IMG/VR virus record: IMGVR_UViG_3300009157_000018
Span: 1 to 64,000 of that record
Strand: one strand, 5' to 3'
Length of the DNA stretch: 64,000 nucleotides
Source of the DNA: a virus
The stretch's first letter is position 1. Each line of letters starts with the position of its first letter. Below the pieces are notes generated by a model. It saw nothing but the letters and a program-made list of their open reading frames with translations, was not told where the DNA came from and did not search any database. Shown here one piece after another: positions 4,369-47,418 of this stretch. Made by a program: the position numbers and the translations under genes.

Positions 4369-4731
4369 TTGAATAGAAGTAGCGGGTCAACGGCAACTTT
4401 TATGAAAGAGTTTTATGCTCTTCGAATGAAAGCCTTGGCAATAGCCGAGGTGAAATGTAGAACGGAACCTAGGAACCTATATCCTGATACACAAATGGGA
4501 ATAGATGTTCGCCCCGAGGGCGTTGTCTTTTTCGATCTAGTACCTAGATCATATGATGATGGGGAAGAAGTCGCGGAGATCATCGTATCTTGGGAGGATA
4601 TCGAGGACTCTGGGACTGCCCTAAAGCGGTACAAGGCAACGATTGCTGAACGGGAGAAAGAACAAGAAGCCGAGAGAAAGAAATGGCGAGAAGATCAGTA
4701 CAATCGTCTGAAGAAAGAATTTGGTGATTGA
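4369..4731 (+). CDS. hypothetical protein
   Basis: ORF in operon context, SD AAGGGAG. Confidence 0.6.
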   Translation: MNRSSGSTATFMKEFYALRMKALAIAEVKCRTEPRNLYPDTQMGIDVRPEGVVFFDLVPRSYDDGEEVAEIIVSWEDIEDSGTALKRYKATIAEREKEQEAERKKWREDQYNRLKKEFGD

Positions 4732-12462: not shown

Positions 12463-12784
12463 TCGGCATCAACATACCGTTCAACTGAATGGCAGGAACG
12501 AAAGTTACTTCCCCATTCTCATCGATATCAATATCAAGGCCGCCCATAAAGACGCCAGATAGCAGTGCCTTGTTAATCATCGATGTACTGGCCCACTCTG
12601 TAACCTTGACCATTTCTTCTGGCTTAGGTTCTTCTCCATGGAGCATGATCCTGGACCTGTTGAGTGACTCCATCAGGTATTGAGCCTGATCTGGACTCAA
12701 CAGGTTAAAACCACTCTTCTTCCAAGGAGGTTCATTTTTCTTACGTCTGGGCATCTTTAAGCTCCTAGAACTGGGCTTCGCCAT
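12443..12784 (-). CDS. hypothetical protein
   Basis: ORF in operon context. Confidence 0.6.
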   Translation of the reverse strand: MAKPSSRSLKMPRRKKNEPPWKKSGFNLLSPDQAQYLMESLNRSRIMLHGEEPKPEEMVKVTEWASTSMINKALLSGVFMGGLDIDIDENGEVTFVPAIQLNGMLMPNGGGPH

Positions 12785-13202
12785 GTACCTTCCGTACTGA
12801 TTGCGCCCAACGAACTCGATCTTTCATGCTGAACACATACGAATCGAGAAGGTCACGGACGAACCGGTATTGTCCTAGCAATGCTTCTTGCGCGGCATGG
12901 CGGTCGGCCTCGGTTGATAAGGGTTTGCCGTCCGCTGCACGCGATTTGGCAGGCAGTTTTTCCAGTTTGGCCTGTGATAGGTAGTATTCTGCGACGACGG
13001 CGAGAGCAGCCACGCGGGGAAGCCAGCCGTCAATCTGTCTCGTCACCATCTGATCCAACTGCAACGGATCATCTGGCAGTGGGCTTGAAAGAGTCTTAGC
13101 CACTGGCTTTAGTTCGATTTGCACCGCCTCAGCCCAGTCGGCAAAGTCTTCGTCGAGCTCGGTAGCCCGGATGAAACTCGGCCAACGGTAGATATCGCTC
13201 AC
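12765..13202 (-). CDS. hypothetical helical protein
   Basis: ORF in operon context. Confidence 0.6.
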   Translation of the reverse strand: MSDIYRWPSFIRATELDEDFADWAEAVQIELKPVAKTLSSPLPDDPLQLDQMVTRQIDGWLPRVAALAVVAEYYLSQAKLEKLPAKSRAADGKPLSTEADRHAAQEALLGQYRFVRDLLDSYVFSMKDRVRWAQSVRKVHGEAQF

Positions 13203-34767: not shown

Positions 34768-34863
34768 ATTTAACGGCCTCCTAAGTGGCCATCATTTATC
34801 CGGTGGAGTAGATTGCATAGGCATCACCTCCCCTATTGGTTTGTTTCCATTATACCATAACAC

Positions 34864-34904
34864 AAAAACACCGGGGTGGAGCCATTCATGCTCACACCCC
34901 GGTG
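34864..34904 (-). terminator. terminator at 3' end of tRNA island
   Basis: CACCGGGGTGTGAGC...GCTCCACCCCGGTG-TTTTT. Confidence 0.8.
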
Positions 34905-34933
34905 AATGTGTTTTCCATCCTAGGTTATAGGTT

Positions 34934-35007
34934 TGGAGCCGCAGCGAGGAATTGAACCCCGATTCACCGCTTACAAGGCGGGTTTCTTGCCGTTAGAAGA
35001 CGGCGGC
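34934..35007 (-). tRNA. tRNA-Thr(UGU)
   Basis: cloverleaf, loop CTTGTAA, encoded CCA. Confidence 0.85.
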
Positions 35008-35020
35008 TCGCGTGTTAGAA

Positions 35021-35308
35021 CTAGGGCGCGGGCTCAGGCTCGGGCTCTGGCTCTGGCTCAGGTGCGGGAGCCGGGGAAACGGCTTCCGTGATCGCGTCAA
35101 TGTCCGCGTCAGCCTCTTCGGCTGTGACAAGTAGAGCGTCGATCTGCTCCTGGGTGACGGCGCCTGCCATCAGTTCGTCAAGTTGTGCCTGTAGTTCGGC
35201 CAACTTTGCGCTTGCGTCGGCTGATGCAGCCATAACTGCATCAAATGCTGCCTGTGAGCTTGTCTTAAGGTCTTCTAGCTCTGCTGATAGTGCTGTAATA
35301 TCTGCCAT
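35021..35308 (-). CDS. acidic coiled-coil protein with C-terminal (PE)n tail
   Basis: SD GGAG; PAPAPEPEPEPEPEPAP. Confidence 0.7.
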   Translation of the reverse strand: MADITALSAELEDLKTSSQAAFDAVMAASADASAKLAELQAQLDELMAGAVTQEQIDALLVTAEEADADIDAITEAVSPAPAPEPEPEPEPEPAP

Positions 35309-35480
35309 TATTGTCTCCGTGTTTTCAAGGATTTGTAACTGTAATCGGTTTTTCTGGGAATTCCGTTTCCCACCCCACAATGAGTCCCAGAAATTCTCTG
35401 GTTGCCCACCACGGTCTTTATTTCTATCTACTTTACTCGTATCGGTCCCCCTTTCTCTGGAGGATAACTGCTCCTATAAC

Positions 35481-35508
35481 AGTATACCACATACCTCCAT
35501 CCTGTCAA
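35481..35508 (-). promoter_or_regulatory. sigma70/sigA-type promoter
   Basis: TTGACA-16nt-TATACT with TG extension. Confidence 0.7.
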
Positions 35509-35514
35509 TAGATT

Positions 35515-35589
35515 TGGAGGACCAGTTGGGGGTCGAACCCAAGTCGTCGGTTTACGAAACCGGCATCCTAGCCACTAGACGACTGATCC
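35515..35589 (-). tRNA. tRNA-Thr(CGU)
   Basis: loop TTCGTAA, CCA. Confidence 0.85.
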
Positions 35590-36129
35590 CCTGATAATTT
35601 TTCGCACCTGAGGCCATGAGGAGGCCCTAGGAAGCCCGCTAAGGTCCGTAGTGAGGTTGTGCGCCCTAGCAAATAAAATTGCCTTCCTGTCGGATTCCAG
35701 GAACTCTAGGCAATTTTGAGGCTTGTCATCAACAAGCAATTCTGCGTCAGTAAAATCGATCTTCCGATCTTTAGGCCCGACGATGGTGACTCTCTGGAAT
35801 TGAGGGCGCCATTTGCCGAGCCACTTCCAAGTGTTGTACTCGGCCCATTGGGGCTTGGAGGTAACGCATTCTAGATAATGACCTTCCCGCCGTAATCGAT
35901 CTAAGGTTCCGATTGCTCCGTCTACGGCAGGGAAGGTATGCCATAACCATTCTCGTTCTCGTAGCCATGTCCACCAGTTCTGTCCAATGATAGGATCAAG
36001 GATAGGATGTAGGTCCCACTGATAGATATCTTCTTCGGAAAGAACTACACCGTACTCCTTCTTAACAGAGTCGCGGAGTCCCCCCACAAAATCTAGAACA
36101 GTATCGTCTAGATCGATTGCCAAATGCAT
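35575..36129 (-). CDS. 5'(3')-deoxyribonucleotidase (HAD, NT5C)
   Basis: IDLDDT, VTS, K and LVDDK motifs. Confidence 0.9.
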   Translation of the reverse strand: MHLAIDLDDTVLDFVGGLRDSVKKEYGVVLSEEDIYQWDLHPILDPIIGQNWWTWLREREWLWHTFPAVDGAIGTLDRLRREGHYLECVTSKPQWAEYNTWKWLGKWRPQFQRVTIVGPKDRKIDFTDAELLVDDKPQNCLEFLESDRKAILFARAHNLTTDLSGLPRASSWPQVRKIIRGSVV

Positions 36130-36311
36130 TACTTCGACTTGATTTCGACTATTTCAACGGCTTCTGTAGGATTGAAGTCCCAGATCGAAACATCATCTAA
36201 TCCAAGTCCTGTTCCATTTTTCTCAATCAATTCCTTGAGCACGAGGGCTTCAATGCCTCCGTGGACCGCGATCTCGTAAGAGATCGTAGCCTTGACAACG
36301 GAATCTACCAC
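36129..36311 (-). CDS. hypothetical protein
   Basis: coupled 60-aa ORF. Confidence 0.55.
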   Translation of the reverse strand: MVDSVVKATISYEIAVHGGIEALVLKELIEKNGTGLGLDDVSIWDFNPTEAVEIVEIKSK

Positions 36312-36677
36312 TTACTTTCCTTCCTCTTCATCGTGAAGAATCTTCGAAGCCACGAATTCCCCAGCCATGATATTGAACATCACGGCAGCCGCGTGGTCTT
36401 CGTCTGTTTCCCCCGTCGCCCATTGTATCAGATGCCGCAAAGCCGACGAGCGATAGCGTGCTAGTTCTTCTTCTCCTCTCGCCATCTCCCAATTGCGAGC
36501 GTCGTATTTCTCAGCTCCCCTGGTCATCAGGTCTGCAAATCGCGTTAGCATCTGCTCATGATACGGAACGCCGAGCGGAAATAAGAGATCGAATCTGGCT
36601 TTCCCATCCTCGGTATCGCGTACCATTCCGCTCTCGTACTCGCTACGCTTGCCAGAATCCTTGGTAATCCTTGTCAT
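36312..36677 (-). CDS. dATP/dGTP diphosphohydrolase domain protein (DUF5664-like)
   Basis: GMVRD..GKARFDLL...GAEKY..NW...SALRHL...EDHAAA..FN. Confidence 0.85.
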   Translation of the reverse strand: MTRITKDSGKRSEYESGMVRDTEDGKARFDLLFPLGVPYHEQMLTRFADLMTRGAEKYDARNWEMARGEEELARYRSSALRHLIQWATGETDEDHAAAVMFNIMAGEFVASKILHDEEEGK

Positions 36678-36857
36678 ACCTTCCCTTATCATCGTAGAAC
36701 TGTGGTTGCTGGTAATCCTTGTGGGTGTGACGATCCTTGGTGTTGTTGGTTCTAGAGCGAGAAGCATCACAGCATTTAATCCCACCAGGACAAGAGGGGA
36801 ACATATAAGTCTTGGGCTTATGCCTCTTGAAATTAGCCATCAACTCACCTTTAGTAT

Positions 36858-36933
36858 TGGTACCGCCCCAGAGAATCGAACTCTGCTGCATCTATATGTA
36901 ACATAGAGGCCCCCACCAGAAGGCAAGGGCGGT
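36858..36933 (-). tRNA. tRNA-Val(UAC)
   Basis: loop GTTACAT, A1-U72, CCA. Confidence 0.75.
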
Positions 36934-36935
36934 AT

Positions 36936-37009
36936 TGGAGCCGGAGCTGGGAGTCGAACCCAAACTGAATCCTTACCAAGGATTTAGTCTACCGTTAACT
37001 TACACCGAC
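36936..37009 (-). tRNA. tRNA-Thr(GGU)
   Basis: loop TTGGTAA, CCA. Confidence 0.85.
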
Positions 37010-37188
37010 TTGTTGTTTTCTTCTTCCCTCTTTAGAATACGAAGACAGGATTCGCACGACTTCTCGTCGGCAGGCAGTTCCGCTGCAGTCTTCGAATCCA
37101 TATATCCCCACTTACCACAATATGCTTTCGGAAGACCAATGCGGCTCTGAAACCGCTCGACATGCCAACTCTTAATAAGGAACCACAT
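37000..37188 (-). CDS. small Zn-binding protein
   Basis: WH...YCG...CESC. Confidence 0.55.
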   Translation of the reverse strand: MWFLIKSWHVERFQSRIGLPKAYCGKWGYMDSKTAAELPADEKSCESCLRILKREEENNKSV

Positions 37189-37190
37189 CT

Positions 37191-37370
37191 TTATTGAATC
37201 CCTGACTTACAATTCTTAGCTGCCGCGTGGCTGTTCTGGAACGCTCGTTCCTCGGAGTCACCATTCGCAATCGTCTTGTTGAAGACGCGCATGAATACTT
37301 GCTGACAACGAGTAGTGGTATATTCCTTTTTTACAGCCTCGGGAAGCTCCTCTGTCTTAGAATATGGCAC
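37191..37370 (-). CDS. ChaB-family protein (59 aa, not in ORF track)
   Basis: MPYSKTEELPEAVK...QQVFMRVFN...EERAFQNSHAAAK. Confidence 0.8.
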   Translation of the reverse strand: MPYSKTEELPEAVKKEYTTTRCQQVFMRVFNKTIANGDSEERAFQNSHAAAKNCKSGIQ

Positions 37371-37565
37371 TTACTTTACCTTCCTGAAAGAATCTTCATA
37401 ATTCGATCTCCATTTCCGTACCTCGCTAGGGCTTGGAAGTCCTGGTATATGCACAATCTCGCCAAAAGGTTCAGCGTAAGGATCGTAGTCTTCCTCTTCG
37501 CGCTTGCGTTCCCAAGCAAGTAGTCTCAGAAGAAACCACCGACCTATGCCTTTTATATCGCGCAT
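37371..37565 (-). CDS. hypothetical protein
   Basis: MRDIKG... with SD GGAGG. Confidence 0.55.
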   Translation of the reverse strand: MRDIKGIGRWFLLRLLAWERKREEEDYDPYAEPFGEIVHIPGLPSPSEVRKWRSNYEDSFRKVK

Positions 37566-37575
37566 GTCCTGCCTC

Positions 37576-37917
37576 CTAGGGTATTTGGGTCTTTTTATTA
37601 GTGTAGCCTCTAGTGTGTGTTCTGATGCGGTGACAGTTGGAGCAGACCACATCGCACTTGACTATCTCCAATTGTAGGCGCTCAATAGACATAGAGGAGG
37701 CTCTGACTGACCCTATCGCGAATTCCTTGTCGCCCCTATGGTCGAAGTCCATGACATATGGTGGGTAACTTTCCCCGCAGTCGGCACATGGCTTGCTTTT
37801 CGCTGCATCGATATAAGCTCTAGTGCGTGCCCGTGCGCGAAGGTTGGAGTCAATGTATTTCTCCTTGTTCGCCTCATAATGAGCACGATAAGATTCCTGT
37901 GATGCCCAACCGCTCAT
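37576..37917 (-). CDS. HNH endonuclease
   Basis: CADC...DFDH...CDVVCSNCH. Confidence 0.9.
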   Translation of the reverse strand: MSGWASQESYRAHYEANKEKYIDSNLRARARTRAYIDAAKSKPCADCGESYPPYVMDFDHRGDKEFAIGSVRASSMSIERLQLEIVKCDVVCSNCHRIRTHTRGYTNKKTQIP

Positions 37918-37935
37918 GGTCGCCTTCTATAAAGT

Positions 37936-38012
37936 TGGTCTGGGAGGCTGGGATCGAACCAGCGACCTTCTGCTCCCAAAGCAGACGCGCTACCTGGCTG
38001 CGCTACACCCAG
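37936..38012 (-). tRNA. tRNA-Pro(UGG)
   Basis: loop TTTGGGA, CCA. Confidence 0.9.
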
Positions 38013-38020
38013 ACGCTAAT

Positions 38021-38092
38021 TGGAGAGAGGGGGCACGATCCCCTGACGAGGGGCTATCACCCTCGCTTGGTCCCAACCAACATGGCTCTCCA
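38021..38092 (-). ncRNA. non-canonical tRNA-like element
   Basis: GGAGAG/CTCTCC-A stem with three arms; T-loop ATCGTG; no canonical anticodon loop. Confidence 0.5.
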
Positions 38093-38228
38093 TTGAAATC
38101 CCGGCTACACGGCATTACGCCTTACCACTGCCCCAAACGAAGGAGCACCCACCTTCCTTACCGGGTGCGCGTAGCAGCGGCCTCACGGCTCACACTCCAC
38201 GCTACCGTGGGAGTCACCCACGAATTAT

Positions 38229-38304
38229 TGGTGCTACCGGACGGGATCGAACCGCCGACGCTCTGCTCTTCAAGCAGACGCTCTACCTACTGAGCTACAG
38301 TAGC
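38229..38304 (-). tRNA. tRNA-Phe(GAA)
   Basis: loop TTGAAGA, CCA. Confidence 0.92.
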
Positions 38305-38306
38305 AC

Positions 38307-38390
38307 TGGTGGTACTCCAGGGATTCGAACCCCGATAGCCAAGACGACTGCTTTACACGCAGTTGATTTCACCCACTTACCATGAGTACC
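38307..38390 (-). tRNA. tRNA-Tyr(GUA)
   Basis: loop GTGTAAA, extended variable arm, CCA. Confidence 0.85.
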
Positions 38391-38392
38391 AT

Positions 38393-38464
38393 TGGCGCCG
38401 CCAGAAGGACTCGAACCCTCAATAAAAGCTTAGAACACTTCGACCCATCCAATGGGATGGCGGC
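38393..38464 (-). tRNA. tRNA-Arg(UCU)
   Basis: stem GAAGT/GCTTT, loop GTTCTAA, G73, CCA. Confidence 0.7.
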
Positions 38465-38472
38465 GTATTTTG

Positions 38473-38625
38473 TTACGGAGTGAGTGCGCTCAGTGCTAGA
38501 GCAACCAGCACTAGCCCAACCCATCCTAGTTTGATGGTGCTAGTTCCCAACTTGAAATCGATAGCCTCTAGTCCAAATAGGATTGCGGCTATGATATACA
38601 TAATTAGATCAGGAGTAACGTCCAT
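38473..38625 (-). CDS. 50-aa membrane protein
   Basis: MDVTPDLIMYIIAAILFGLEA...GWVGLVLVALALSALTP. Confidence 0.65.
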   Translation of the reverse strand: MDVTPDLIMYIIAAILFGLEAIDFKLGTSTIKLGWVGLVLVALALSALTP

Positions 38626-38697
38626 TTATACCCTCTTTGCGAAGAAGATGATCGCTAAGATCACCAATATGATAATCAGAATTGTTACTACGTCCAT
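38626..38697 (-). CDS. 23-aa single-helix membrane peptide
   Basis: MDVVTILIIILVILAIIFFAKRV; SD GAGGTG. Confidence 0.65.
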   Translation of the reverse strand: MDVVTILIIILVILAIIFFAKRV

Positions 38698-38860
38698 TTT
38701 CTCACCTCTGTTGTGCCGGTAACGAGACTTCCGGCTCGGAACCTACCGCCAGAGCGATGCCGACGAGGGCCTTCCCGAGATGGCTTCTGGCTTATACCTC
38801 GGTACACATGACCCAACCGCTTACGGGGACCACGTGGTAGTCCTTGGGAGCGGGGTTAAT

Positions 38861-38948
38861 TGGCGGAAGGCCAAGGAATCGAACCTTGGCTGGTGTTACC
38901 CAGGCTACTGTTCAGCAAACAGACACATTACCGCTCTGTCAACCTTCC
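38861..38948 (-). tRNA. tRNA-Ser(GCU)
   Basis: loop TTGCTGA, long variable arm. Confidence 0.9.
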
Positions 38949-38950
38949 GT

Positions 38951-39026
38951 TGGTGAGTCCGGCAGGGCTCGAACCTGCATACGCGGAGTTTAAAAGACTC
39001 CCGTTCATCCGTTGAACTACGGACCC
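38951..39026 (-). tRNA. tRNA-Lys(UUU)
   Basis: loop CTTTTAA. Confidence 0.9.
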
Positions 39027-39029
39027 ATT

Positions 39030-39103
39030 TGGAGGACTCTGCCAGATTCGAACTGGCGTAAGCGGGTTTGCAATCCGCCCCCTCGCCGCTCGGGCAAGAG
39101 TCC
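39030..39103 (-). tRNA. tRNA-Cys(GCA)
   Basis: loop TTGCAAA, U73. Confidence 0.9.
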
Positions 39104-39363
39104 TTGTTAACCTCTGGCGACTGCGGTGACCACAAACACACCCTACTTACGCTGGGGCCTACGATGATCGCAAGCGATCTTGGGCGCCTGGGCAGTCCGC
39201 CGATCAGACGCGCATGTGGTCTCTTCCTCAGAGGCTAATTATTGGAAGAAAGGCTTACACACCGCGCATTTATTTCTGATTCACGCGGCCCTTATCTAGT
39301 CCGGCTAAGCAGTACAGAAACACTGCTTTCGCCCCCCACTCCTGGGCCTTCCTTCGCATCTAT

Positions 39364-39439
39364 TGGTGGGCAGCATAGGGATCGAACCTATGACCTACTG
39401 TATGTCATACAGACGCTCTTACCGCTGAGCTAGCCGCCC
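39364..39439 (-). tRNA. tRNA-Val(GAC)
   Basis: loop ATGACAT. Confidence 0.85.
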
Positions 39440-39612
39440 GCTTGTTCTTTTGCTCGTTCTAATATCGACTTGCGCTCTTCCTCAGGGTCTACTAAAACTA
39501 CTCTGGGAGAAGGTGATAAAGGAACAACTTCTTCTTCCTTATCCTCCTTCGGTCGGTCCGGCATACGCTCCTCGGGTCGGAACTGCGTATAAGTTCGCTT
39601 TCGTTTAGCCAT
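39430..39612 (-). CDS. hypothetical protein
   Basis: 60-aa charged ORF. Confidence 0.55.
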   Translation of the reverse strand: MAKRKRTYTQFRPEERMPDRPKEDKEEEVVPLSPSPRVVLVDPEEERKSILERAKEQAGG

Positions 39613-39817
39613 GATTCACCCCATCGTCTTCGATAGTAATGTTGGATTCTTTGAAGGGGACTGCTCCACCTTCATTCTCCCAATCGGATGCTGGCTGATC
39701 TTCTACTGATTCGTAGATGCGCCGCAATCGATCCGATTCGGTCCTGCCTCCAAAGGCAGGTTGGCGAGTAATTATTCCTATATCGTTCATATTCTCCTTA
39801 GATCGTAGTTTCGCCAT
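39605..39817 (-). CDS. hypothetical protein
   Basis: 70-aa ORF; internal SD AAGGAG. Confidence 0.55.
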   Translation of the reverse strand: MAKLRSKENMNDIGIITRQPAFGGRTESDRLRRIYESVEDQPASDWENEGGAVPFKESNITIEDDGVNHG

Positions 39818-39956
39818 CTGTCCCTATATACTCCATCATCATCGGGGACTTGCATGGCCGATCCGACCACCAAGTGCCAATCATTGATCGTAATGTGGAG
39901 TCGTATACCTTCAAGACCACAACTCCATCGTGTGCATAGATGTATTTTCATAGTTT

Positions 39957-40032
39957 TGGTAGCCCCCCTGAGATTCGAACTCAGACTGGAACGCTTTTGA
40001 GACGTTTGCCTCTGCCGTTGGGCTAGAGGGCC
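39957..40032 (-). tRNA. tRNA-Leu(CAA), short variable loop
   Basis: loop CTCAAAA; 76 nt. Confidence 0.85.
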
Positions 40033-40034
40033 AT

Positions 40035-40110
40035 TGGTACCCTCGGTCAGATTCGAACTGACACTGGACCGGGCTTAAACCGGACGCCTCTGCCGTTGGG
40101 CTACGAGGGC
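40035..40110 (-). tRNA. tRNA-Leu(UAA), short variable loop
   Basis: loop TTTAAGC; 76 nt. Confidence 0.85.
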
Positions 40111-41342
40111 TCTCTTAGCCGGAACCCGGCCTGTACCTGTTCGGGTTCGGCACGAATAGCCGACCCCTTAGATTGATCAAACAACTCTGCTATTGTATGC
40201 GATCTTTTCTCAATTGTCAAGTCATGCTCGGCAGCCCATTGTGCGGACTCAGTTGCATTTAACTCACTGAATCGGATGCTGGCTGAAATTCGACCAGGAC
40301 GAGCCACCGCTGGATGGAATCTACCGATATCTTCATTGGTAGTAATCAGTACAAGGATGCGAAGCCCTTGACCAATCAATCCATCTACGAGGTTCAGTAG
40401 ACGACTTAAACCCTGGCCTGATCGCTCTTTAGCATCTGCGCTTAAGAGCTCGCCTGTATCTTCGAAGATCAGGGTGCGCCAGCGTTTGTCTGGCTCACTC
40501 TCGCCCTCGTCATCATCAAGCGGAGAATATCTCTCACTACCGATGATAACATTCATCAGATAGGATGCTTCTGCACCGAAGAATTTCTCAGGGTCAACGA
40601 CATACTCGAAATCACACCAATCTCGCCATTCGTTAGCCAGTGCCCGAATTGCATAGGTTTTCCCGGTTCCTGGAGGGCCATACCACAAGAGCAATTGTCC
40701 TGTGACTAAAGATTCGGGCCGGAAATCCTTGGCCAACATCTTCGATAGACCTGTGTAGGTCTCATAAGAATAGTTGGGTGCGATTTCGTCCCATTTTGGA
40801 ACTGCAATCTTCCGACGAATCAGATTCGGGCCGTTGGATGCCAGCGACCAGAAGTGCAGATCAATGATGTGTTCGTCGCCTTCGGCTGTGATCGGCTTAT
40901 ACACATCATGTAGGCCGATCAGCCACTTCACACCTATGTCATAGTCATCTGTGTAACAAGTGAAGGTAGAAGCTCCGGCATCGCGAGATACAATGTCAAT
41001 GATAATCTCGTCATTGATCCAAGTAAAACGCTCCCAGCGCTTGCTGCTATTCTTGAAAGTTTTGGGGTCCATGTAGCTGCGCCGATAAAACAACGGCACG
41101 CCCATGTCCGCAAGGTGAGACTCTTCTACGACTACATCCGTCTCCCAATTGGCAGACACACAATAACGAAGACCTCGGGCCGCGATCTCGCGCATCGCGA
41201 TATCGTGTCCCAGACTGTCATCGCTGGTTTCCAAGGCCAATCCAATTTGCTTCGCATCAGTCTCGACTAATACCCCTGTACTTGCCGGTAGACCAATTTC
41301 AGCCCTGGAGAAATCCTTGCCCTTGTCGTATGATCTTCCCAT
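40101..41342 (-). CDS. AAA ATPase (DUF5925-associated type)
   Basis: GPPGTGKT, IFED, LLNLVDGLIGQG, TTN, RPGR. Confidence 0.88.
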   Translation of the reverse strand: MGRSYDKGKDFSRAEIGLPASTGVLVETDAKQIGLALETSDDSLGHDIAMREIAARGLRYCVSANWETDVVVEESHLADMGVPLFYRRSYMDPKTFKNSSKRWERFTWINDEIIIDIVSRDAGASTFTCYTDDYDIGVKWLIGLHDVYKPITAEGDEHIIDLHFWSLASNGPNLIRRKIAVPKWDEIAPNYSYETYTGLSKMLAKDFRPESLVTGQLLLWYGPPGTGKTYAIRALANEWRDWCDFEYVVDPEKFFGAEASYLMNVIIGSERYSPLDDDEGESEPDKRWRTLIFEDTGELLSADAKERSGQGLSRLLNLVDGLIGQGLRILVLITTNEDIGRFHPAVARPGRISASIRFSELNATESAQWAAEHDLTIEKRSHTIAELFDQSKGSAIRAEPEQVQAGFRLREPS

Positions 41343-41359
41343 GTTCCTCCCGAAATATT

Positions 41360-41436
41360 TGGGGTGACCGCAGAGGCTCGAACTCTGTTACCTCGGTCCA
41401 CAACCGAGTGCCTCAGCCGGTTTGGCTTCGGCCACC
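41360..41436 (-). tRNA. tRNA-His(GUG)
   Basis: loop TTGTGGA, G-1:C73. Confidence 0.9.
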
Positions 41437-41441
41437 ATGGT

Positions 41442-41513
41442 TGGCGGGAACGGTAGGAATCGAACCCACTGCGTTCTGCTTTGGAGGCAGTCGCCTTACC
41501 TTAAGTCGAACCC
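41442..41513 (-). tRNA. tRNA-Trp(CCA)
   Basis: loop CTCCAAA; two U-U pairs in acceptor stem; short D-arm. Confidence 0.7.
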
Positions 41514-41573
41514 GCGCTAATGGGAGTGCCAGGCCAAACGCTCAACTCGACCCCTGTTGCTCCCTTGTCGGGG

Positions 41574-41603
41574 ATTCTACTACACCCCGATAGCGCTTGT
41601 CAA
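41574..41603 (-). promoter_or_regulatory. sigma70/sigA-type promoter
   Basis: TTGACA-18nt-TAGAAT. Confidence 0.7.
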
Positions 41604-41605
41604 GT

Positions 41606-41896
41606 TTATCCTTGAGGCTGTTCGCCTGAAGGCGGATCGCCCAGAGCAGCGCTTCCAGAAGAAGCCGCCTCAGCAACGAGGGCCTTGGTGGTCTTCGCTG
41701 AGAAGACGAGCTGACGGATAATTTCTGTAGCGATGGCAGCGGCAGCAAGGCCAACAGCCACAACAAACTCAGACGAGAACTCTAGCCCTAACTGGCCAGC
41801 AATAAACAGCGTAGCAGCAGTAGCAGCGGCAGAAGAGTAAGCGACAATACGAGCAGCTTCTCGTTCTAGTAAACCTTTAATCCAATCTGGTAGCAT
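41606..41896 (-). CDS. holin-like membrane protein
   Basis: 2 TM helices, IRQLVFS motif; downstream of endolysin. Confidence 0.7.
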   Translation of the reverse strand: MLPDWIKGLLEREAARIVAYSSAAATAATLFIAGQLGLEFSSEFVVAVGLAAAAIATEIIRQLVFSAKTTKALVAEAASSGSAALGDPPSGEQPQG

Positions 41897-41920
41897 ATCT
41901 AAATTCCTTACTATATAGTA

Positions 41921-42826
41921 TTATCCCAACGCGACCTTCGCGTTGTTAATCTTCTGGTTCTGCGCCGTGAGAATCACGGTCATGTCATCCAGTTGAGTCT
42001 TTAGAGGGGCAGTAGCAGCAGCAATCTCTGCGGCGCAATCCGATGGAGTAGAAACAGTCTCAGCAGAAATAAGAGGCGTTAGTGTAGAGATATGGAAATA
42101 TCCGCGCTCTTGCTTGCTTCCTGTCCACAAAGCACCCGTATACCATGCGCTTGATCCATTGATGTTGGCTCCACCGACTTGAAAATCTGGATAAAAGATA
42201 GTACCAGCCGGGAATTGAGCAAGAGCTGCGTTTGCAGTACTTGGATCACGCCGGAAGTTCGTGCCAGCATTTTTGGTTGATGCCTGCTTATTGATTAGCC
42301 GCTGAGGATTGCTTCCAAGTACCACTTCTGATGCTCCTGCCGTAAGAATGGTTTGATCTAACAGGGGCCACAAATCCTTGGCCACACCATTAGGAAATTG
42401 ACTAGTGTGCTGTTTACAATCTGCATGTAGATGTGGGCCACTGATTCCGTAACCAGTTGCACCCAGGACACCAATCTGTTGCCCTTTAGACACGGTTGTA
42501 TTCACAGCCACACTAAATGACTGAAGATGGGCGTATCCTGTAGACCAATACCCACCTGAGTCTAAGCGACCAGCATGTGTCACTCGCATGATCAGGGCTC
42601 CATGACCAACCTGGCCCGGTGTATTTTGAATATACCGACTGGTTACCTTACCAGAGGCCATTGCATACACGGGAGCCCCCTGTCGTGCATTGCCAATGTC
42701 AAGAGCACATCCAACACCGGACCTTACATGCGCGGCACATCCACGAGTTACGACGAAATCAAGATTACCAGCTGGCCTAACCCAACCTTCTGGGTGGAGA
42801 TAGCCAGGAACTGGAGTTGCAAACAT
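41921..42826 (-). CDS. endolysin, M23 peptidase with SH3-like domain
   Basis: ALDIG...YAHL...GATG...GPHLH; NFRRDPST SH3-like; C-terminal coiled coil. Confidence 0.85.
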   Translation of the reverse strand: MFATPVPGYLHPEGWVRPAGNLDFVVTRGCAAHVRSGVGCALDIGNARQGAPVYAMASGKVTSRYIQNTPGQVGHGALIMRVTHAGRLDSGGYWSTGYAHLQSFSVAVNTTVSKGQQIGVLGATGYGISGPHLHADCKQHTSQFPNGVAKDLWPLLDQTILTAGASEVVLGSNPQRLINKQASTKNAGTNFRRDPSTANAALAQFPAGTIFYPDFQVGGANINGSSAWYTGALWTGSKQERGYFHISTLTPLISAETVSTPSDCAAEIAAATAPLKTQLDDMTVILTAQNQKINNAKVALG

Positions 42827-42848
42827 ACCTTCTGTCCTTCCGGGCGCT

Positions 42849-42872
42849 AAAAAGCGCCCTTAGGAGGCGCTT
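42849..42872 (-). terminator. intrinsic terminator
   Basis: AAGCGCC-TCCTAAG-GGCGCTT-TTT. Confidence 0.6.
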
Positions 42873-42877
42873 AAGTT

Positions 42878-42960
42878 TGGTACTGACCGAGAGATTCGAA
42901 CTCTCACCCCGAAGGACTTGTTCCTAAGACAAGCGCGTAAACCAATTCCGCCAGGCCAGC
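42878..42960 (-). tRNA. tRNA-Leu(UAG)
   Basis: loop CTTAGGA, variable arm. Confidence 0.9.
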
Positions 42961-43061
42961 ACACGATTAGTGCCGGTTACCGGGTCCGGCGCTGTTTCAG
43001 ACGGGATACATTTTACAAGCCCCAAATTGGCTAACCGATTACCTCTCACAGCGGTAAGTAA

Positions 43062-43139
43062 TGGTGGAGGCGCGGAGAATCGAACTCCGATCTTTCGGGT
43101 GCAAACCGACTGTGTAGACGCCACTAGCACTACACCCCC
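43062..43139 (-). tRNA. tRNA-Ala(UGC)
   Basis: G3-U70, loop TTTGCAC. Confidence 0.85.
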
Positions 43140-43147
43140 ACGACCAT

Positions 43148-43158
43148 ATTGTACCACA
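43148..43158 (-). promoter_or_regulatory. extended -10 promoter
   Basis: TGTGGTACAAT just upstream of tRNA-Ala. Confidence 0.6.
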
Positions 43159-43162
43159 GTTA

Positions 43163-43648
43163 TTATGAAGACGCCAGACGAATGATGAGATTGATCGCCA
43201 GAGAACCGACCGTAGCCGCGATCCCGACGAGAAGACCGACCTTCCATTGGTTGCTTCGTAGACGGTCGTTTTGGTCTTCACGATCTCTAGCCATCTGCTC
43301 CTTTGAAAGACGTTCGGTTTCAACCCGCTTGATTTCGGCAGTCTTCAGTTCTGCTAGCGTCATAGAAATGGTCGCAATGTCAGCCTTCGTAGCAAAATTG
43401 CGCTCTCGGTCATTCATGGTCTCACGCCACTCATTGGCGTCAGCCTTGTTTTCTTTCGCTAGCAGGGCGGCAGTGTCGATCGCCGCCTGAGAGAATTGGT
43501 GTTCCCTAGCGTGAGCGGCTTCGTGTTGTAAATGTTCCCGTTCATGATTGGCCCAAATTAGGTCCAAACGGTCACGGAGGGCAACAAGTTCGCCATGAAT
43601 GGTTGCATTTGTCGCCCGAGTTGAATTTTCAGTGTTGTCCTCAGGCAT
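43163..43648 (-). CDS. coiled-coil protein with C-terminal TM helix (lysis accessory-like)
   Basis: ANEWRETMND...KVGLLVGIAATVGSLAINLII; SD GGGGAGG. Confidence 0.7.
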   Translation of the reverse strand: MPEDNTENSTRATNATIHGELVALRDRLDLIWANHEREHLQHEAAHAREHQFSQAAIDTAALLAKENKADANEWRETMNDRERNFATKADIATISMTLAELKTAEIKRVETERLSKEQMARDREDQNDRLRSNQWKVGLLVGIAATVGSLAINLIIRLASS

Positions 43649-43686
43649 TACCCCTCCCCCTGTGCCACTAGCACATGGTATGCATG

Positions 43687-43905
43687 TTATACTTCAGGTT
43701 GATCGATAATTTCAGTTGCCTCTGGCATTTTCATGCCATCAGCATTGAAGTTCTTGGCTGCTTCCTTAGCAATAGCCTCGGCTGCTGGATCACGCATCGG
43801 CGTGAGCTTAGGAGGAAGAAGTAGTTCATCCTTCATAGCCTTAACGCGCTTCTCAGCCTCCTTGTCATCCTTGTATCTGCGACTATTACGCAAGTTCTTT
43901 AACAC
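43687..43905 (-). CDS. hypothetical protein
   Basis: GTG start after GAGGG; upstream part of the listed ORF is tRNA-Asp. Confidence 0.55.
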   Translation of the reverse strand: MLKNLRNSRRYKDDKEAEKRVKAMKDELLLPPKLTPMRDPAAEAIAKEAAKNFNADGMKMPEATEIIDQPEV

Positions 43906-43917
43906 TCTACCCTCGTT

Positions 43918-43993
43918 TGGCGGCGCCCAAGAGACTCGAACTCTCTGACTTCTGGTTGACAACCAGATACCGATACCCTTTGGCTTCGGCGCC
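43918..43993 (-). tRNA. tRNA-Asp(GUC)
   Basis: loop TTGTCAA, G73. Confidence 0.85.
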
Positions 43994-44002
43994 ACGCTAA
44001 TT

Positions 44003-44076
44003 TGGAGCGGCTACCCAGGATCGAACTGGGACTAACAGCTTGGAAGGCTGTTGTACTGCCGTTATACGACAGCCGC
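44003..44076 (-). tRNA. tRNA-Gly(UCC)
   Basis: loop CTTCCAA, U73. Confidence 0.9.
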
Positions 44077-44693
44077 TAGTTCAATTGTTGATGCTGTCCT
44101 GACCGCCTACCCCATAGCCAACTACCGATCATCAACAGAAGCACAACACCTACTACGCTAATCCCACCAGGAATTTCCGGTGTGGCTGTGTCCGTTAAGG
44201 GTCCAGGTAGAGATGGATACTCACCGCCGGTGCCAGGACCAGGTAGTGGAGGTGCAGGCGCTCCGGGTGAAACATCACACGGTCTACTGAAAAGGCTGAC
44301 GAAGTATGTTCGTCCAGTAGAAGGCTGGAAATATGCAGCGGAACCGATTTCAGCCCAATTGCCAGTCATTACGGCAAGGTGAGACGGACTGCCGATCCAT
44401 CCGATTACCGCCTGCGCCAAAGGATCAGCGTAACCCTTATTCCACGCAATGATCTCGCCCCACGACCAACAACCTAACCGTTGGGTTAGATCGGTGTGTG
44501 CAAACTCTCCCGTCACTGTGATTTCTATTACTCGTTCTAGTGCAACTCTGGTTAGCAGTGCAGAGGTTGGTAGGTCCGATTCTCCTACCGACACACGATA
44601 CGCATTAACGGCGTCATCGACTGGTGTGGCTGCGTAAACTGGAGTTGTAATCCCAAATACAAGTGCAAGAATGATAATAATTAACCTTCGCAT
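44076..44693 (-). CDS. secreted CAP/SCP-domain protein with C-terminal membrane anchor
   Basis: signal peptide; NAYR...FAH...GEIIA...WIGSPSH; Pro linker, TDTA, TM helix, RR. Confidence 0.85.
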   Translation of the reverse strand: MRRLIIIILALVFGITTPVYAATPVDDAVNAYRVSVGESDLPTSALLTRVALERVIEITVTGEFAHTDLTQRLGCWSWGEIIAWNKGYADPLAQAVIGWIGSPSHLAVMTGNWAEIGSAAYFQPSTGRTYFVSLFSRPCDVSPGAPAPPLPGPGTGGEYPSLPGPLTDTATPEIPGGISVVGVVLLLMIGSWLWGRRSGQHQQLN

Positions 44694-44763
44694 CAGGTCC
44701 CCCCCCAACATCATATAGTGCCAAATAGGTAGCTATCCGACCAGCCACACTATTTATATGTGT

Positions 44764-44839
44764 TGGAGCCCCTGACAGGAATCGAACCCGCATACGCTCT
44801 GCTTCGAAGGCAGACGTTCATCCGTTGAACTACAGAGGC
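44764..44839 (-). tRNA. tRNA-Arg(UCG)
   Basis: loop CTTCGAA. Confidence 0.85.
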
Positions 44840-44841
44840 CC

Positions 44842-44915
44842 TGGTAGCGACTGCGGGACTCGAACCCGCTTCTCCGACTTGAAAGGCCGGATGCTCAGCC
44901 CTATGCTCAGCCGCC
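44842..44915 (-). tRNA. tRNA-Glu(UUC)
   Basis: loop CTTTCAA. Confidence 0.8.
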
Positions 44916-44924
44916 GTGATAAAT

Positions 44925-45000
44925 TGGTACGGCCTACCAGATTCGAACTGGTGATCTTCTGATTGAGAATCAGATGCCTTGTCCGCTTGGCCAAGGCCGC
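44925..45000 (-). tRNA. tRNA-Glu(CUC)
   Basis: loop TTCTCAA. Confidence 0.85.
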
Positions 45001-45089
45001 ATAAGTAGCCCATCTCACCCCGTGACCGCAGCACTTGTTGGGACAGTTACTAGCGACACCCCAAGTGGGTCGAGAGATAGGCGTGTAAT

Positions 45090-45165
45090 TGGCGAGCCCC
45101 CCGAGATTCGAACTCGGAACCTTATGGGTAAGAACCATCTGCACCAGCCGTTGTGCTAGAGGCCC
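45090..45165 (-). tRNA. tRNA-Lys(CUU)
   Basis: loop TTCTTAC. Confidence 0.85.
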
Positions 45166-45238
45166 GCTGATATTGCCGTGTAGGAGATACGGCGACGACC
45201 ACCCCGCTCCCTACGAAGCGACGGGCTCTGACCCCCCT

Positions 45239-45312
45239 TGGCTGGCTCGCTAGGATTCGAACCTAGATAGTGAGGACCAAAATCTCACGTCCTGCCGTTA
45301 GACGACAAGCCA
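45239..45312 (-). tRNA. tRNA-Gln(UUG)
   Basis: loop TTTTGGT, U1-A72. Confidence 0.88.
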
Positions 45313-45574
45313 ACGCTATTGTGGCGGTAGTACTCCCCAGGCTATGGTGGGCCAAGGACCGCCGAATAAATGCGCTTACTAGCCTTGCGTCCAAGGCCAC
45401 CCCGCCTCCAGGCTTTCTACTAAAGTGCCTATTCCCTCAGCGCGTAGTCCAAGGAGCAGAGGCCCGAAGGCATGCTCCCGGTTAAAATAAGGTCAGGATG
45501 GATCACTGCAGGTCTCATCAACGCACCGGTATCTACTTGCCGGAGGCTCTCTCTTGGCCTACTGACCTTATAAA

Positions 45575-45659
45575 TGGTGGAGGCGCCGACGAGTTGCACA
45601 TCGGGTCCGAAACCGTTCTCTTGCGAGGCTTACAGCTTCGTCGAACCTATCTCACCCCC
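45575..45659 (-). ncRNA. mini-tmRNA: tRNA-like domain only, no tag ORF
   Basis: 5' GGGGGTGAGATAGGTTCGAC and 3' GGACCCGATGTGCAACTCGTCGGCGCCTCCACCA match ssrA ends; G3-U70; 9-bp P2 capped by a GCAA hairpin. Confidence 0.8.
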
Positions 45660-45663
45660 AGGT

Positions 45664-45738
45664 TGGCTGGCACGGAAGGGATCGAACCTTCGAATACACG
45701 GTTAACAGCCGCGCTCTTTACCGCTCAGACACATGCCA
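45664..45738 (-). tRNA. tRNA-Asn(GUU)
   Basis: loop CTGTTAA, U1-A72, G73. Confidence 0.88.
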
Positions 45739-45901
45739 ACGCTAATGGCGAACACGATCAATGTTTCGGTGCGGTCCATATCACGATAGTACCTCAGGTG
45801 ATCGACCCTTCGCTACGTTGAACCCTATCCTAGTTCGCCTAAGCCAGCGTTTGAACAGGGGCGACCCGTCAACCTCTGGCTGTATAAATGATGCTGCTAG
45901 A

Positions 45902-46042
45902 TTATCTGGACCTAGGAATCGACCGTCGCCTTAGAGGTCGTCTAATGTCCCTAACCTGAAATGCATTAAGCCTAGCCTTCGGATTGAATAATCCGATCTT
46001 AGGCTTATAAGAACGGGGAACTCTAAAAAATTTCCCAGGCAT
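45902..46042 (-). CDS. 46-aa very basic Arg-rich protein
   Basis: SD AGGGGA; MPGKFFRVPRSYKPK...RRPLRRRSIPRSR. Confidence 0.6.
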   Translation of the reverse strand: MPGKFFRVPRSYKPKIGLFNPKARLNAFQVRDIRRPLRRRSIPRSR

Positions 46043-46109
46043 AATATCCCCTAATCTGTTGGTCAGCGTCATCCTCATATCTGACCTGTCAGCCCCTCTA
46101 TACTCCATT

Positions 46110-46420
46110 CCGAGTGCCCTAGCACTTTAGGTATAGAACCTTGTGGCCGTTGCCACGCTGCTGACTTCCCGTCGTGGATTCTCCCAAGTCTGTGTCCTTT
46201 AATTTCCAGACTATATCCAGCTCGCGGGAAGCGATAATGGATAGTTGTGAAAGCCACAACAAGAGTCACCACTATAAAATACCTTTGGGGAGTTTATGGG
46301 AAGGTGTACACCACTACTCTTGCTCTTGCAAGTCCTGCTCCCCAAAGGCAGTTAAATTGGCTTCGCGGGTTTCTAGTAAGACCCCAAGCCAGTTACCTTC
46401 TGCCACAACTAGAACACGGC
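46110..46420 (-). ncRNA. putative ~310-nt structured ncRNA of unknown family
   Basis: terminal stem GTGTTCTAG/CTAGGGCAC, long-range TTGTGGC/GCCACAA, at least 6 hairpins, complementary loops. Confidence 0.6.
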
Positions 46421-46613
46421 GGTAACGAATAAATGAGGTAAGGCTTGCCTGGATACGCTACCCATGACCAAGGCGTCCGTCCAGGGCGATGGAATCCAAG
46501 CCATCGCCGTGCGTGGGGAGGAGGTACCCCACACCGTATTCGCCAATTGTTAAAGTTGCTGTGACCCCGGCCGGGTTCTCCCTTGGTTCGCTACCAGAGC
46601 CACAGCAAATAAT

Positions 46614-46631
46614 TGGTACGTCCTACAGGAA
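46614..46631 (-). pseudogene. 3' remnant of a deleted tRNA
   Basis: TTCCTGT-AGGACGT-ACCA only. Confidence 0.5.
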
Positions 46632-46632
46632 A

Positions 46633-46709
46633 TGGTAGGGACCCCGAGAGTCGAACTCGGCTAAACTACCTTATCAGAGTAGCGCTCACGACCGGCCTGC
46701 CCGATCCCT
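46633..46709 (-). tRNA. tRNA-Ile(GAU)
   Basis: loop CTGATAA. Confidence 0.85.
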
Positions 46710-46710
46710 A

Positions 46711-46788
46711 TGGTAGCCTCTCATGGAATCGAACCATGCTCTGAGCCGCTTATAAGACGGATTCCCTCTACCAGAGAGAACAGAGGCC
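46711..46788 (-). tRNA. tRNA-Ile(UAU)
   Basis: loop CTTATAA. Confidence 0.8.
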
Positions 46789-46796
46789 ATTCTGAT

Positions 46797-46870
46797 TGGT
46801 TGCGGGTACGAGAATCGAACTCGTTATCCACAGGTTATGAGCCTGGGCAACCCACCAGGGTCTACCCGCG
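46797..46870 (-). tRNA. tRNA-fMet(CAU)
   Basis: loop CTCATAA; C1:A72 mismatch. Confidence 0.8.
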
Positions 46871-46878
46871 AAGATCAT

Positions 46879-46952
46879 TGGAGCAGATAGCCGGGTTCGA
46901 ACCGACGATTCCTGCATGGCACGCAAGCGTGTTACCACTATACCATATCTGC
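46879..46952 (-). tRNA. tRNA-Gly(GCC)
   Basis: loop GTGCCAT, U73. Confidence 0.88.
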
Positions 46953-46953
46953 T

Positions 46954-47028
46954 TGGCTGCGTCTCTTCGATTCGAACGAAGGGTACACGGGTTCAGAGCC
47001 CGCCGCCTTACCGCTTGGCTAAGACGCA
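46954..47028 (-). tRNA. tRNA-Gln(CUG)
   Basis: loop CTCTGAA. Confidence 0.88.
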
Positions 47029-47139
47029 AAGATGTGTACGGTCTTAAGGCAAGGAGACCATCACAGGAGGTTTACCGCTCTGGCATTGCTGCCCTCTCGG
47101 TCTAACTCAGCACAGCTAGTACACAGACCCGTACTTAAT

Positions 47140-47226
47140 TGGCGGAAGTTGTAGGACTCGAACCCACACGGGCTTTCACACCCATCACTCTTTTCAGGAG
47201 AGCTAAGTACACCAATACGAACTTCC
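47140..47226 (-). tRNA. tRNA-Ser(UGA), atypical C33
   Basis: loop CCTGAAA, long variable arm, G73. Confidence 0.75.
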
Positions 47227-47334
47227 GCGTTTGTTAATTTTGACCCCGGTTACCTGACCACCGAAGTGACCAACCAACCAATCCACCGACTCGCCGGGGG
47301 TCGTTCCAAGGCTGCACCAAGGAGGACAGTGCTA

Positions 47335-47363
47335 ACTGTAACACAGCTCTTTGGGCTTGTCAA
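47335..47363 (-). promoter_or_regulatory. promoter at head of tRNA/ncRNA island
   Basis: TTGACA-17nt-TACAGT with TG extension. Confidence 0.7.
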
Positions 47364-47375
47364 GTGCGAATCGGC

Positions 47376-47411
47376 GCGAGGGACGCCCGGACTAAGCCGA
47401 GCGCCCCCCGC
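47376..47411 (-). terminator. GC hairpin after tail tube gene
   Basis: GCGGGGGGCGCTCGG-CTTAGT-CCGGGCGTCCCTCGC; no U-tract. Confidence 0.5.
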
Positions 47412-47418
47412 AGGCCAT

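Follow-up and report, generated by a model that had tools for sequence, protein, structure and literature searches.

What fills the gaps between the genes of a long phage tRNA array? The question is raised by positions 34864-47363 of a 64-kb window (W; the whole stretch of DNA analysed here), which is part of the 91.5-kb single-contig virus record IMGVR_UViG_3300009157_000018, classed in IMG/VR as linear and estimated to be ~73% complete. The region carries an array of 32 tRNAs on its minus strand, covering all 20 amino acids, and a sequence-only reading had taken the segments between them, some ~17 non-coding pieces of 50-310 nt, for separate folded RNAs that could make up a decoy library or a multi-part ribonucleoprotein (RNP). 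Our analysis leads to a different answer, which we hold to be probable: the region is a mosaic phage tRNA operon of protein genes, cis signals and a few real small RNA genes, among them a tag-less transfer-messenger RNA (tmRNA) that consists of the tRNA-like domain (TLD) only, with no dedicated array of non-coding RNAs (ncRNAs). Raw sequence makes phage tRNA arrays look RNA-only; in this one, small protein genes and control signals account for half of the "spacers".

Of the gaps, roughly half encode protein, as indicated by Pfam and PHROG matches, by protein-level conservation in relatives, and by a codon-usage log-likelihood-ratio (LLR) profile trained on the long genes of the phage. The profile separates cleanly, with coding windows at 7.9+/-3.5, shuffled windows at -3.8+/-4.5 and the spacers mostly below 3.6, and the earlier statement that the segments lack convincing open reading frames (ORFs) does not hold for the coding half. 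The array has 19 inter-tRNA gaps longer than 50 nt, ranging from 73 to 1364 nt. Truly non-coding, non-tRNA sequence amounts to ~2.4 kb in ~10 gaps; non-coding segments do exist, fewer than had been counted and in gaps of a wider size range. The spacers are not repeats of one another, as that reading had it.

The comparisons rest on distant members of an uncultured clade. No close cultured relative was found in 50,697 phage records by megablast and blastn of the array or by tblastn of neighbouring proteins; the matches there were tRNAs, with the sole exception of distant relatives of an AAA ATPase in mycobacteriophage Myrna-like phages. Just upstream of the array is the gene for a 411-aa protein, whose 84 metagenomic homologues (48-94% identity) make the phage a member of a sizeable clade, and several relative contigs bear soil-metagenome-style names. 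Single-protein scans of IMG/VR found no relatives; an alignment-based scan matched 2 IMG/VR and 10 metagenome loci, and 0 loci in bacterial genomes. We compared W with L002, L006, L007 (L005 being the same phage), L003 and L001. The order of the tRNAs is nearly identical in the arrays of W, L002, L006 and L007, the gap lengths are very different, and the orthologous tRNAs of W and L007 are 52-86% identical (mean 66%). By blastn and nhmmer the spacers of L002, L006 and L007 are mostly unalignable to W, and the few W spacer segments that align among the four arrays all do so with L007. No homologues of W spacers were found by nhmmer in 175 other phage loci.

The non-coding stretches delimited by the LLR profile, and the elements within them, are as follows (z gives folding stability against dinucleotide shuffles):

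47227-47418: non-coding stretch holding the promoter and leader of the array.
47029-47139, minus strand: 111-nt non-coding element between tRNA-Ser and tRNA-Gln, conserved in L007 at 2436-2531.
45739-46632, minus strand: 894-nt gap between tRNA-Ile(GAU) and tRNA-Asn.
45313-45663: non-coding stretch holding the next two elements.
45575-45659, minus strand: 85-nt tag-less, TLD-only mini-tmRNA (the mini-TLD), 4 nt after tRNA-Asn.
45313-45574, minus strand: 262-nt spacer (z +0.66) that includes a 78-nt stem-closed module at 45487-45568; no homologues, function unsupported.
45166-45238, minus strand: 73-nt two-hairpin small RNA, conserved in L007 at 7256-7330.
45001-45089, minus strand: 89-nt spacer with a 9-bp closing stem (z -2.0); no homologue found.
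42961-43061, minus strand: 101-nt spacer.
39104-39363, minus strand: 260-nt spacer with two stem-closed domains (z -2.66, 0/200 shuffles as stable); no homologue found.
38711-38860, minus strand: ~150-nt non-coding stretch.
38013-38228, minus strand: 216-nt spacer (z -0.84); no homologue found.

The mini-TLD folds into a 7-bp acceptor stem with G3:U70, followed by A73 and an encoded CCA, a T-arm and a stemless D-region. The anticodon arm, tag ORF and pseudoknots of a tmRNA are absent, and a P2 helix of 8+3 bp with a GCAA loop is found instead. Of its 24 pairs, 6 differ between W and L007 by double and 5 by single compensating changes and 0 are broken, P2 accounting for 4 compensatory pairs, and the alanine-identity features (G3:U70, A73, CCA) are present in both phages. 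A covariance model (CM) built from these two sequences matches mycobacteriophage DS6A at 28478-28560 over its full length (model positions 1-85; 27.2 bits, E 3e-4) as well as the 3' terminus of E. coli ssrA, where the match stops precisely at the CCA (16.4 bits, E 0.003). DS6A carries a TLD-only tmRNA that lacks a coding sequence (Hudson et al. 2014, PMC4131195; tmRNA database 2025, PMC11915505).

The exact T-arm pattern of the mini-TLD has no match in IMG/VR. A looser pattern, in which the 5' GGGG was left free, recovered 55 IMG/VR loci (L142-L196) with full-length CM matches in 39 phage contigs; as this was one narrow pattern, the number stands for at least 39. Across 33 distinct sequences of the family 96.9% of cells are paired, covariation is seen at 19 of the 24 pairs, and every member keeps GGGG (G1-G4) with G3:U70. 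Nine lie beside same-strand tRNAs and 28 are without a tRNA in the fetched locus, and ARAGORN called a tmRNA in none of them. As far as its sequence can be put to the test, the element carries the defining features of TLD-only tmRNAs, a barely described class that on this count is common in uncultured phages.

With G3:U70, A73 and CCA present but no tag template, the mini-TLD would be expected to bind SmpB and/or alanyl-tRNA synthetase, and by analogy with DS6A it most likely blocks or diverts the trans-translation of the host. PMC4131195 and PMC11915505 contain the statement that an RNA similar to the DS6A form strongly inhibits tmRNA, perhaps via titration of SmpB (Mao et al. 2009, via PMC4131195). 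No SmpB gene was found in this phage, which does encode a stand-alone RF-1/GGQ domain protein (PF00472, E 1.4e-20; W 3688-3879, plus strand, in an ORF of ~120 aa). The co-occurrence of a GGQ gene and a tag-less mini-tmRNA hints at phage control or reprogramming of ribosome rescue. The decoy idea survives in this one form, the mini-TLD plausibly acting as a decoy for the RNA-binding protein SmpB; nothing points to decoys for defence nucleases. We also observed complementarity (17 nt, 76%) between 45403-45419, ~150 nt downstream of the mini-TLD, and 45569-45585, where the 3' acceptor strand of the mini-TLD lies with its CCA and trailer; it could be an alternative pairing or mere chance.

The 73-nt RNA holds 16 pairs between W and L007, of which 2 are compensatory and 0 broken, and is not coding because the two sequences differ by 1-nt indels. 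Both it and the mini-TLD are 76% identical between W and L007, against the mean of 66% for orthologous tRNAs, which places them at least level with the tRNAs in constraint; judged by this pattern of change, both are RNA genes under purifying selection. The 111-nt element matches L007 at 97-100% identity over 20 nt at its 5' end and 38 nt at its 3' end, with a different sequence in the middle; it may be either a cis-regulatory element or a small RNA. The notion of real RNAs between the tRNAs holds for the mini-TLD and the 73-nt RNA, which covary, and may hold for the 111-nt element, which is conserved; the other spacers are without an alignable homologue.

The 73-nt RNA shares a motif with other spacers of the array, a hairpin that we call the handle: GCCGG, a 9-11 nt loop ending in GUAA, CCGGC, and then A, giving a 5-bp stem.

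45174-45193, minus strand: handle forming the second hairpin of the 73-nt RNA, 8 nt before tRNA-Lys.
42971-42990, minus strand: handle at the 3' end of the 101-nt spacer, 10 nt before tRNA-Leu(UAG).
38710-38738, minus strand: third, weaker handle-like hairpin (17 bits with a handle CM), which ends the ~150-nt stretch and is directly followed by the Shine-Dalgarno site of a micro-ORF.

The window holds 2 exact matches to the handle, both on the array strand, where 0.04 are expected. Among the relatives, copies occur in L002 at 13041-13059, directly before tRNA-Gly, and in L007 at 7304-7323, and the CM finds weaker ones at L007 2901-2924 and L006 4226-4251. A pattern scan of IMG/VR returned at least 120 loci, most of them probable chance matches. 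Among the matches listed, at least 7 lie 0-10 nt upstream of a same-strand tRNA (L021, L035, L102, L119, L128, L131 and L137), where 0.1 are expected, and at least 15 lie within 300 nt upstream of one; 0 lie near an opposite-strand tRNA. No Rfam family covers the handle-bearing loci. A second small hairpin usually abuts the handle, and a pseudoknot between the two loops was ruled out by eye as inconsistent across examples.

After an RNase P cut at the tRNA-proximal sites, the handle would become a 3'-terminal, exonuclease-blocking hairpin on the released spacer RNA, only a few nucleotides short of its end. We put forward only tentatively, and with more doubt than confidence, that it may mark an undescribed and widespread family of phage small RNAs, in which exchangeable 5' bodies are joined to a constant 3' hairpin lying 0-10 nt before a tRNA, RNase P makes the 3' end, and a dedicated phage or host factor recognises the handle. 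If so, the 73-nt, 101-nt and 150-nt spacers would belong to one functional RNA system and would not be unrelated filler.

The array itself is framed by signals that would make it a transcription unit:

47335-47363, minus strand: promoter P1, with TTGACA, a 17-nt spacing and a TG-extended TACAGT; a strong sigma-70-type site between the upstream gene and the first tRNA.
47227-47330, minus strand: predicted transcribed leader; it forms a hairpin capped by UUCG and has a boxA-like UUAACAA (47231-47237) 5 nt before tRNA-Ser(UGA).
47140-47226, minus strand: tRNA-Ser(UGA), first of the array.
41574-41603, minus strand: near-consensus promoter-like site.
40192-40220, minus strand: near-consensus promoter-like site.
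35481-35508, minus strand: near-consensus promoter-like site.
34860-34912, minus strand: intrinsic terminator ending the array, its G+C-rich stem of 10 bp lying between an A-run upstream and a U-run downstream (z -3.9).

A ACTTGACA -35 box is common to the promoter-like sites on the array strand, and it recurs in L003 and L007 as ACTTGACA...TGTGGTATACT. The region, as the sequence-only reading had delimited it, runs from promoter to terminator, which makes co-transcription a reasonable expectation. The dense packing of the tRNAs is as that reading described it, 13 junctions measuring 1-9 nt, and so are the linkers: the CCA is encoded in every array tRNA, and in most cases an A and then an A/U-rich trailer come next. 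ARAGORN placed 29 tRNAs between 34934 and 47226 on the minus strand and Rfam added 2 more; three of the 32 were identified with relaxed settings or by eye:

44845-44915, minus strand: tRNA-Glu(TTC), with relaxed settings.
43921-43993, minus strand: tRNA-Asp(GTC), read by eye.
41445-41513, minus strand: tRNA-Trp(CCA), a weak match with relaxed settings.

We expect that host RNA polymerase starts at the sigma-70-type promoters with the ACTTGACA -35 box (47363, 41603, 40220 and 35508) and that the transcript takes in 32 tRNAs, no fewer than 13 protein genes of small or medium size and ~2.4 kb of spacer that is not translated before it stops near 34870. As in bacterial tRNA maturation, RNase P would cut the 5' end of each tRNA and of the mini-tmRNA, an endonuclease would cut in the A/U-rich trailers, and exonucleases would then trim to the encoded CCA, yielding free tRNAs and also setting free whatever lies between them. 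The proposal of a polycistronic transcript from which tRNA processing frees the spacers is in keeping with the four promoter-like sites, the terminator, the CCA ends and the linkers.

A transcript of this kind may carry its own protection from Rho. Within the 894-nt gap lie two adjoining elements:

46556-46608, minus strand: 15-bp hairpin (z -3.5).
46545-46555, minus strand: CUUUAACAAUU, directly after the hairpin, identical at 11/11 nt to the E. coli rrnB boxA core (NC_000913).

In the E. coli rrnB leader boxA likewise follows a hairpin. Motifs of the UUAACAA type also occur at the end of the P1 leader (47231-47237), at the end of the 260-nt gap just before tRNA-Cys (39104-39110) and at L007 4356-4364, in a promoter-proximal leader just before the L007 mini-TLD; 4 of the 7 UUAACAA copies in the window lie on the array strand within its 12.5 kb. 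The hairpin and boxA suggest a candidate rRNA-type antitermination site; it may recruit Nus factors and so keep Rho from terminating the long untranslated transcript. Together with the handle hairpin, the rRNA-like boxA offers testable leads to the means by which long untranslated transcripts of phages are shielded and cleaved.

Across the spacers of the relatives (n=37) the mean z is -1.39, with 10 below -2.5, against -0.45 and 1 below -2.5 in matched coding segments (n=40). The shift is real but modest, and part of it arises because unrecognised tRNAs (Trp, Ser, Met, Glu) sit in the relatives' spacers. Individual gaps of W range from z +0.7 to -3.0, most of them between +0.7 and -2, and unusual folding of the segments is not confirmed beyond this modest shift. 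The terminal helix ascribed to most segments is not: end-to-end closure occurs in 18 of 40 spacers of the four related arrays, at chance, since dinucleotide shuffles predict 15.2. Apart from tRNA, the array matches no Rfam family at E<=10, and the same goes for the relatives; self-cleaving ribozymes, riboswitches, GOLLD and ROOL were ruled out by the same zero result. The 894-, 262-, 260-, 216- and 89-nt spacers appear to be lineage-specific and modestly structured, and a function for them is not demonstrated.

The 894-nt gap could be read as one large, ornate ncRNA that founds a class of its own, about as big as GOLLD or ROOL, closed by a long-range helix of ~10 bp and placed beside tRNAs. 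It shows no sign of coding and matches nothing in Rfam, Pfam or PHROG; its minimum-free-energy fold pairs offset ~88 with the 3' end (~10 bp) and holds many sub-hairpins; and its z of -5.3 to -5.6 is the most negative of ten 894-nt segments. GOLLD and ROOL are known beside phage tRNAs (PMC12286853). Nine coding segments of the same length from the same genome, however, span z -0.55 to -4.25, and local 150-nt windows of the gap (mean z -1.3) are no more structured than those of two genes (-0.8 and -1.1). Measured against its own shuffles, the antisense strand is just as well folded (z -6.5), no homologue occurs in any collection searched, and the relatives have only 82-129 nt at this position. 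Iterons or origin-like repeats are absent from the gap. We consider a single large RNA unlikely.

Less likely again is that all spacers other than the mini-tmRNA are functionless leftovers, the scars of insertions or the remains of decayed tRNA and protein genes, with structure arising by chance from their G+C content. The variation of gap length and content between arrays that keep their tRNA order would suit this explanation, as would the lack of detectable homology for most spacers, end closure at chance, and the ability of long coding controls to fold well below their shuffles. Yet conservation is higher in the 73-nt RNA and at the ends of the 111-nt element than in the tRNAs around them, the 73-nt RNA also having compensatory changes; in several phage lineages the handle turns up again right before tRNAs, on their strand; and the 260-nt gap is more stable than 200 of 200 shuffles. 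A scan for T-arm hairpins in the W spacers found the mini-TLD alone, and no extra tRNA matches appeared in them at E<=10. An origin from tRNA pseudogenes was ruled out, T-arm remnants being absent outside the mini-TLD.

Least likely of the three is the coherent library of ~17 RNAs, decoys or parts of an RNP, since, for all the A/U-rich linkers and encoded CCA around its modules, the overall shift in folding, the clean stem-closed domains in some gaps and the three truly conserved elements, protein genes occupy about half of the gaps, promoters, leaders or an antitermination-like site account for some of the modules, helices that close the ends are no commoner than chance would give, most remaining spacers lack homologues, covariation or stability above controls, and a gene for a partner RNA-binding protein such as Ro60 is not present. 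The Y RNA (YrlA)/Ro60 system was ruled out, with no Rfam match and with PF05731 (TROVE/Ro60) absent from the 91-kb, ~73% complete record.

The mosaic operon remains the reading that we prefer, and several points weigh against it or its parts. Its transcription units, its processing sites and the stability of its RNAs are predictions from DNA. Conservation of the 73-nt and the 111-nt element is seen in one relative only, L007, and the latter is without covariation in that comparison. The Rfam tmRNA model RF00023 does not match the mini-TLD, where only tRNA-Ala and T-arm fragments match; this counts as weak evidence because ~290 model positions are deleted in the mini-TLD, whose T-loop, UGCAACU, in addition departs from the usual UUCNANU. 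The handle CM has no convincing match in 352 kb of other phage contigs, several tRNA arrays included, and the handle pattern fixed both strands of the stem, the stem change seen being one G-C to U-A, in W. The match to boxA, an 11-mer, is a short one, for which ~0.03 occurrences are expected per window, and UUAACAA as a whole shows no enrichment there (7 against 5.7 expected). Finally, the relatives are uninformative on the constraint of the other spacers because orthologous tRNAs are only 52-86% identical; at such a distance, failure to align is not proof that a spacer is unconstrained.

The protein genes that alternate with the tRNAs are these:

44079-44714, minus strand: 212-aa ORF.
43687-43905, minus strand: 72-aa ORF.
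43163-43648, minus strand: 161-aa ORF with a homologue in L006 (E 3e-12).
41921-42826, minus strand: M23 peptidase (Pfam/PHROG).
41606-41896, minus strand: 96-aa membrane protein.
40101-41342, minus strand: AAA ATPase related to mycobacteriophage Myrna gp262 (Pfam/PHROG).
39442-39817, minus strand: overlapping pair of small genes (70 aa, 57 aa); Shine-Dalgarno sites are present and the codon usage is of the coding type.
38626-38697, minus strand: 23-aa hydrophobic membrane micro-ORF with a Shine-Dalgarno site, found in L007 at 3819-3890.
38473-38625, minus strand: 50-aa membrane-protein ORF, directly after the micro-ORF.
37576-37917, minus strand: HNH endonuclease (Pfam/PHROG).
37012-37652, minus strand: small ORFs.
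36312-36785, minus strand: MazG-like dATP/dGTP diphosphohydrolase (Pfam/PHROG).
35575-36129, minus strand: NT5C 5'-nucleotidase (Pfam/PHROG).
35021-35380, minus strand: 119-aa coiled-coil protein, conserved in relatives.

tRNA-Gly(UCC) and tRNA-Asp are interspersed among the 212-, 72- and 161-aa genes (43163-44714), tRNA-Trp and tRNA-His among the M23, 96-aa and AAA ATPase genes, and Thr and Val tRNAs among those of 35021-37917, which include a 60-aa ORF. The stretch 38473-38697, counted as RNA in the sequence-only reading, is two small membrane-protein genes: over an 85-nt stretch the micro-ORF is 76% identical to L007 with conservative amino-acid substitutions, which marks it as coding and not RNA. 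Some ORFs reach or enter the next tRNA, namely the 212-aa ORF at Gly-UCC (44076-44079), the AAA ATPase ORF at Leu-UAA (40101-40113) and the NT5C ORF at Thr-CGU (35575-35590); processing of the tRNA 5' ends would cut at or near those stop codons.

ARAGORN and/or Rfam at default thresholds miss real, non-canonical tRNAs (Ser-UGA, Trp-CCA, Met and Glu) in this phage clade. Such tRNAs lie at ~12776-12886 and 15853-15932 in L002, at 3762-3848, ~4370-4445 and ~8452-8531 in L006, at ~4700-4774 and ~7540-7620 in L007 and at 41445-41513 in W, so that part of the relatives' "spacers" are hidden tRNAs.

Set beside known systems, the elements of this array find counterparts of differing closeness. Like the TLD-only tmRNA of DS6A, the mini-TLD is phage-encoded and combines an acceptor stem with G3:U70, A73, a T-arm and a short closed P2, with no tag frame or pseudoknots. 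The two differ in their low sequence similarity (27 bits), in the UGCAACU T-loop of W, in the CCA, which is encoded in W whereas DS6A reads CUA at the aligned position, and in setting, the mini-TLD of W lying in a 32-tRNA array of a phage with a stand-alone GGQ gene. The candidate antitermination site resembles rrnB in having a hairpin and then the boxA core in a long untranslated transcript otherwise exposed to Rho; unlike in rrnB, the bases upstream of boxA are GCAA and not UGCU, and there is one full match only. The 894-nt gap is similar in size to GOLLD and ROOL and lies beside phage tRNAs as they do, and differs from GOLLD, ROOL and YrlA in having no Rfam match at E<=10.

The tRNA region of phage T5 yields stable RNAs. 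From that of T4 come the small RNAs RNAC and RNAD (species 1 and 2), whose roles are unknown (PMC3014915). Like these, the 73-nt RNA, the 111-nt element and the mini-TLD lie within the tRNA transcription unit, on the tRNA strand and between promoter and terminator, and by analogy the spacer RNAs are presumably co-transcribed and released by tRNA-processing enzymes. The likeness seen is one of placement, and in contrast to T4 many protein genes lie between the tRNAs here. The locus adds members to known categories, small RNAs among phage tRNAs and TLD-only tmRNAs, and not a new category.

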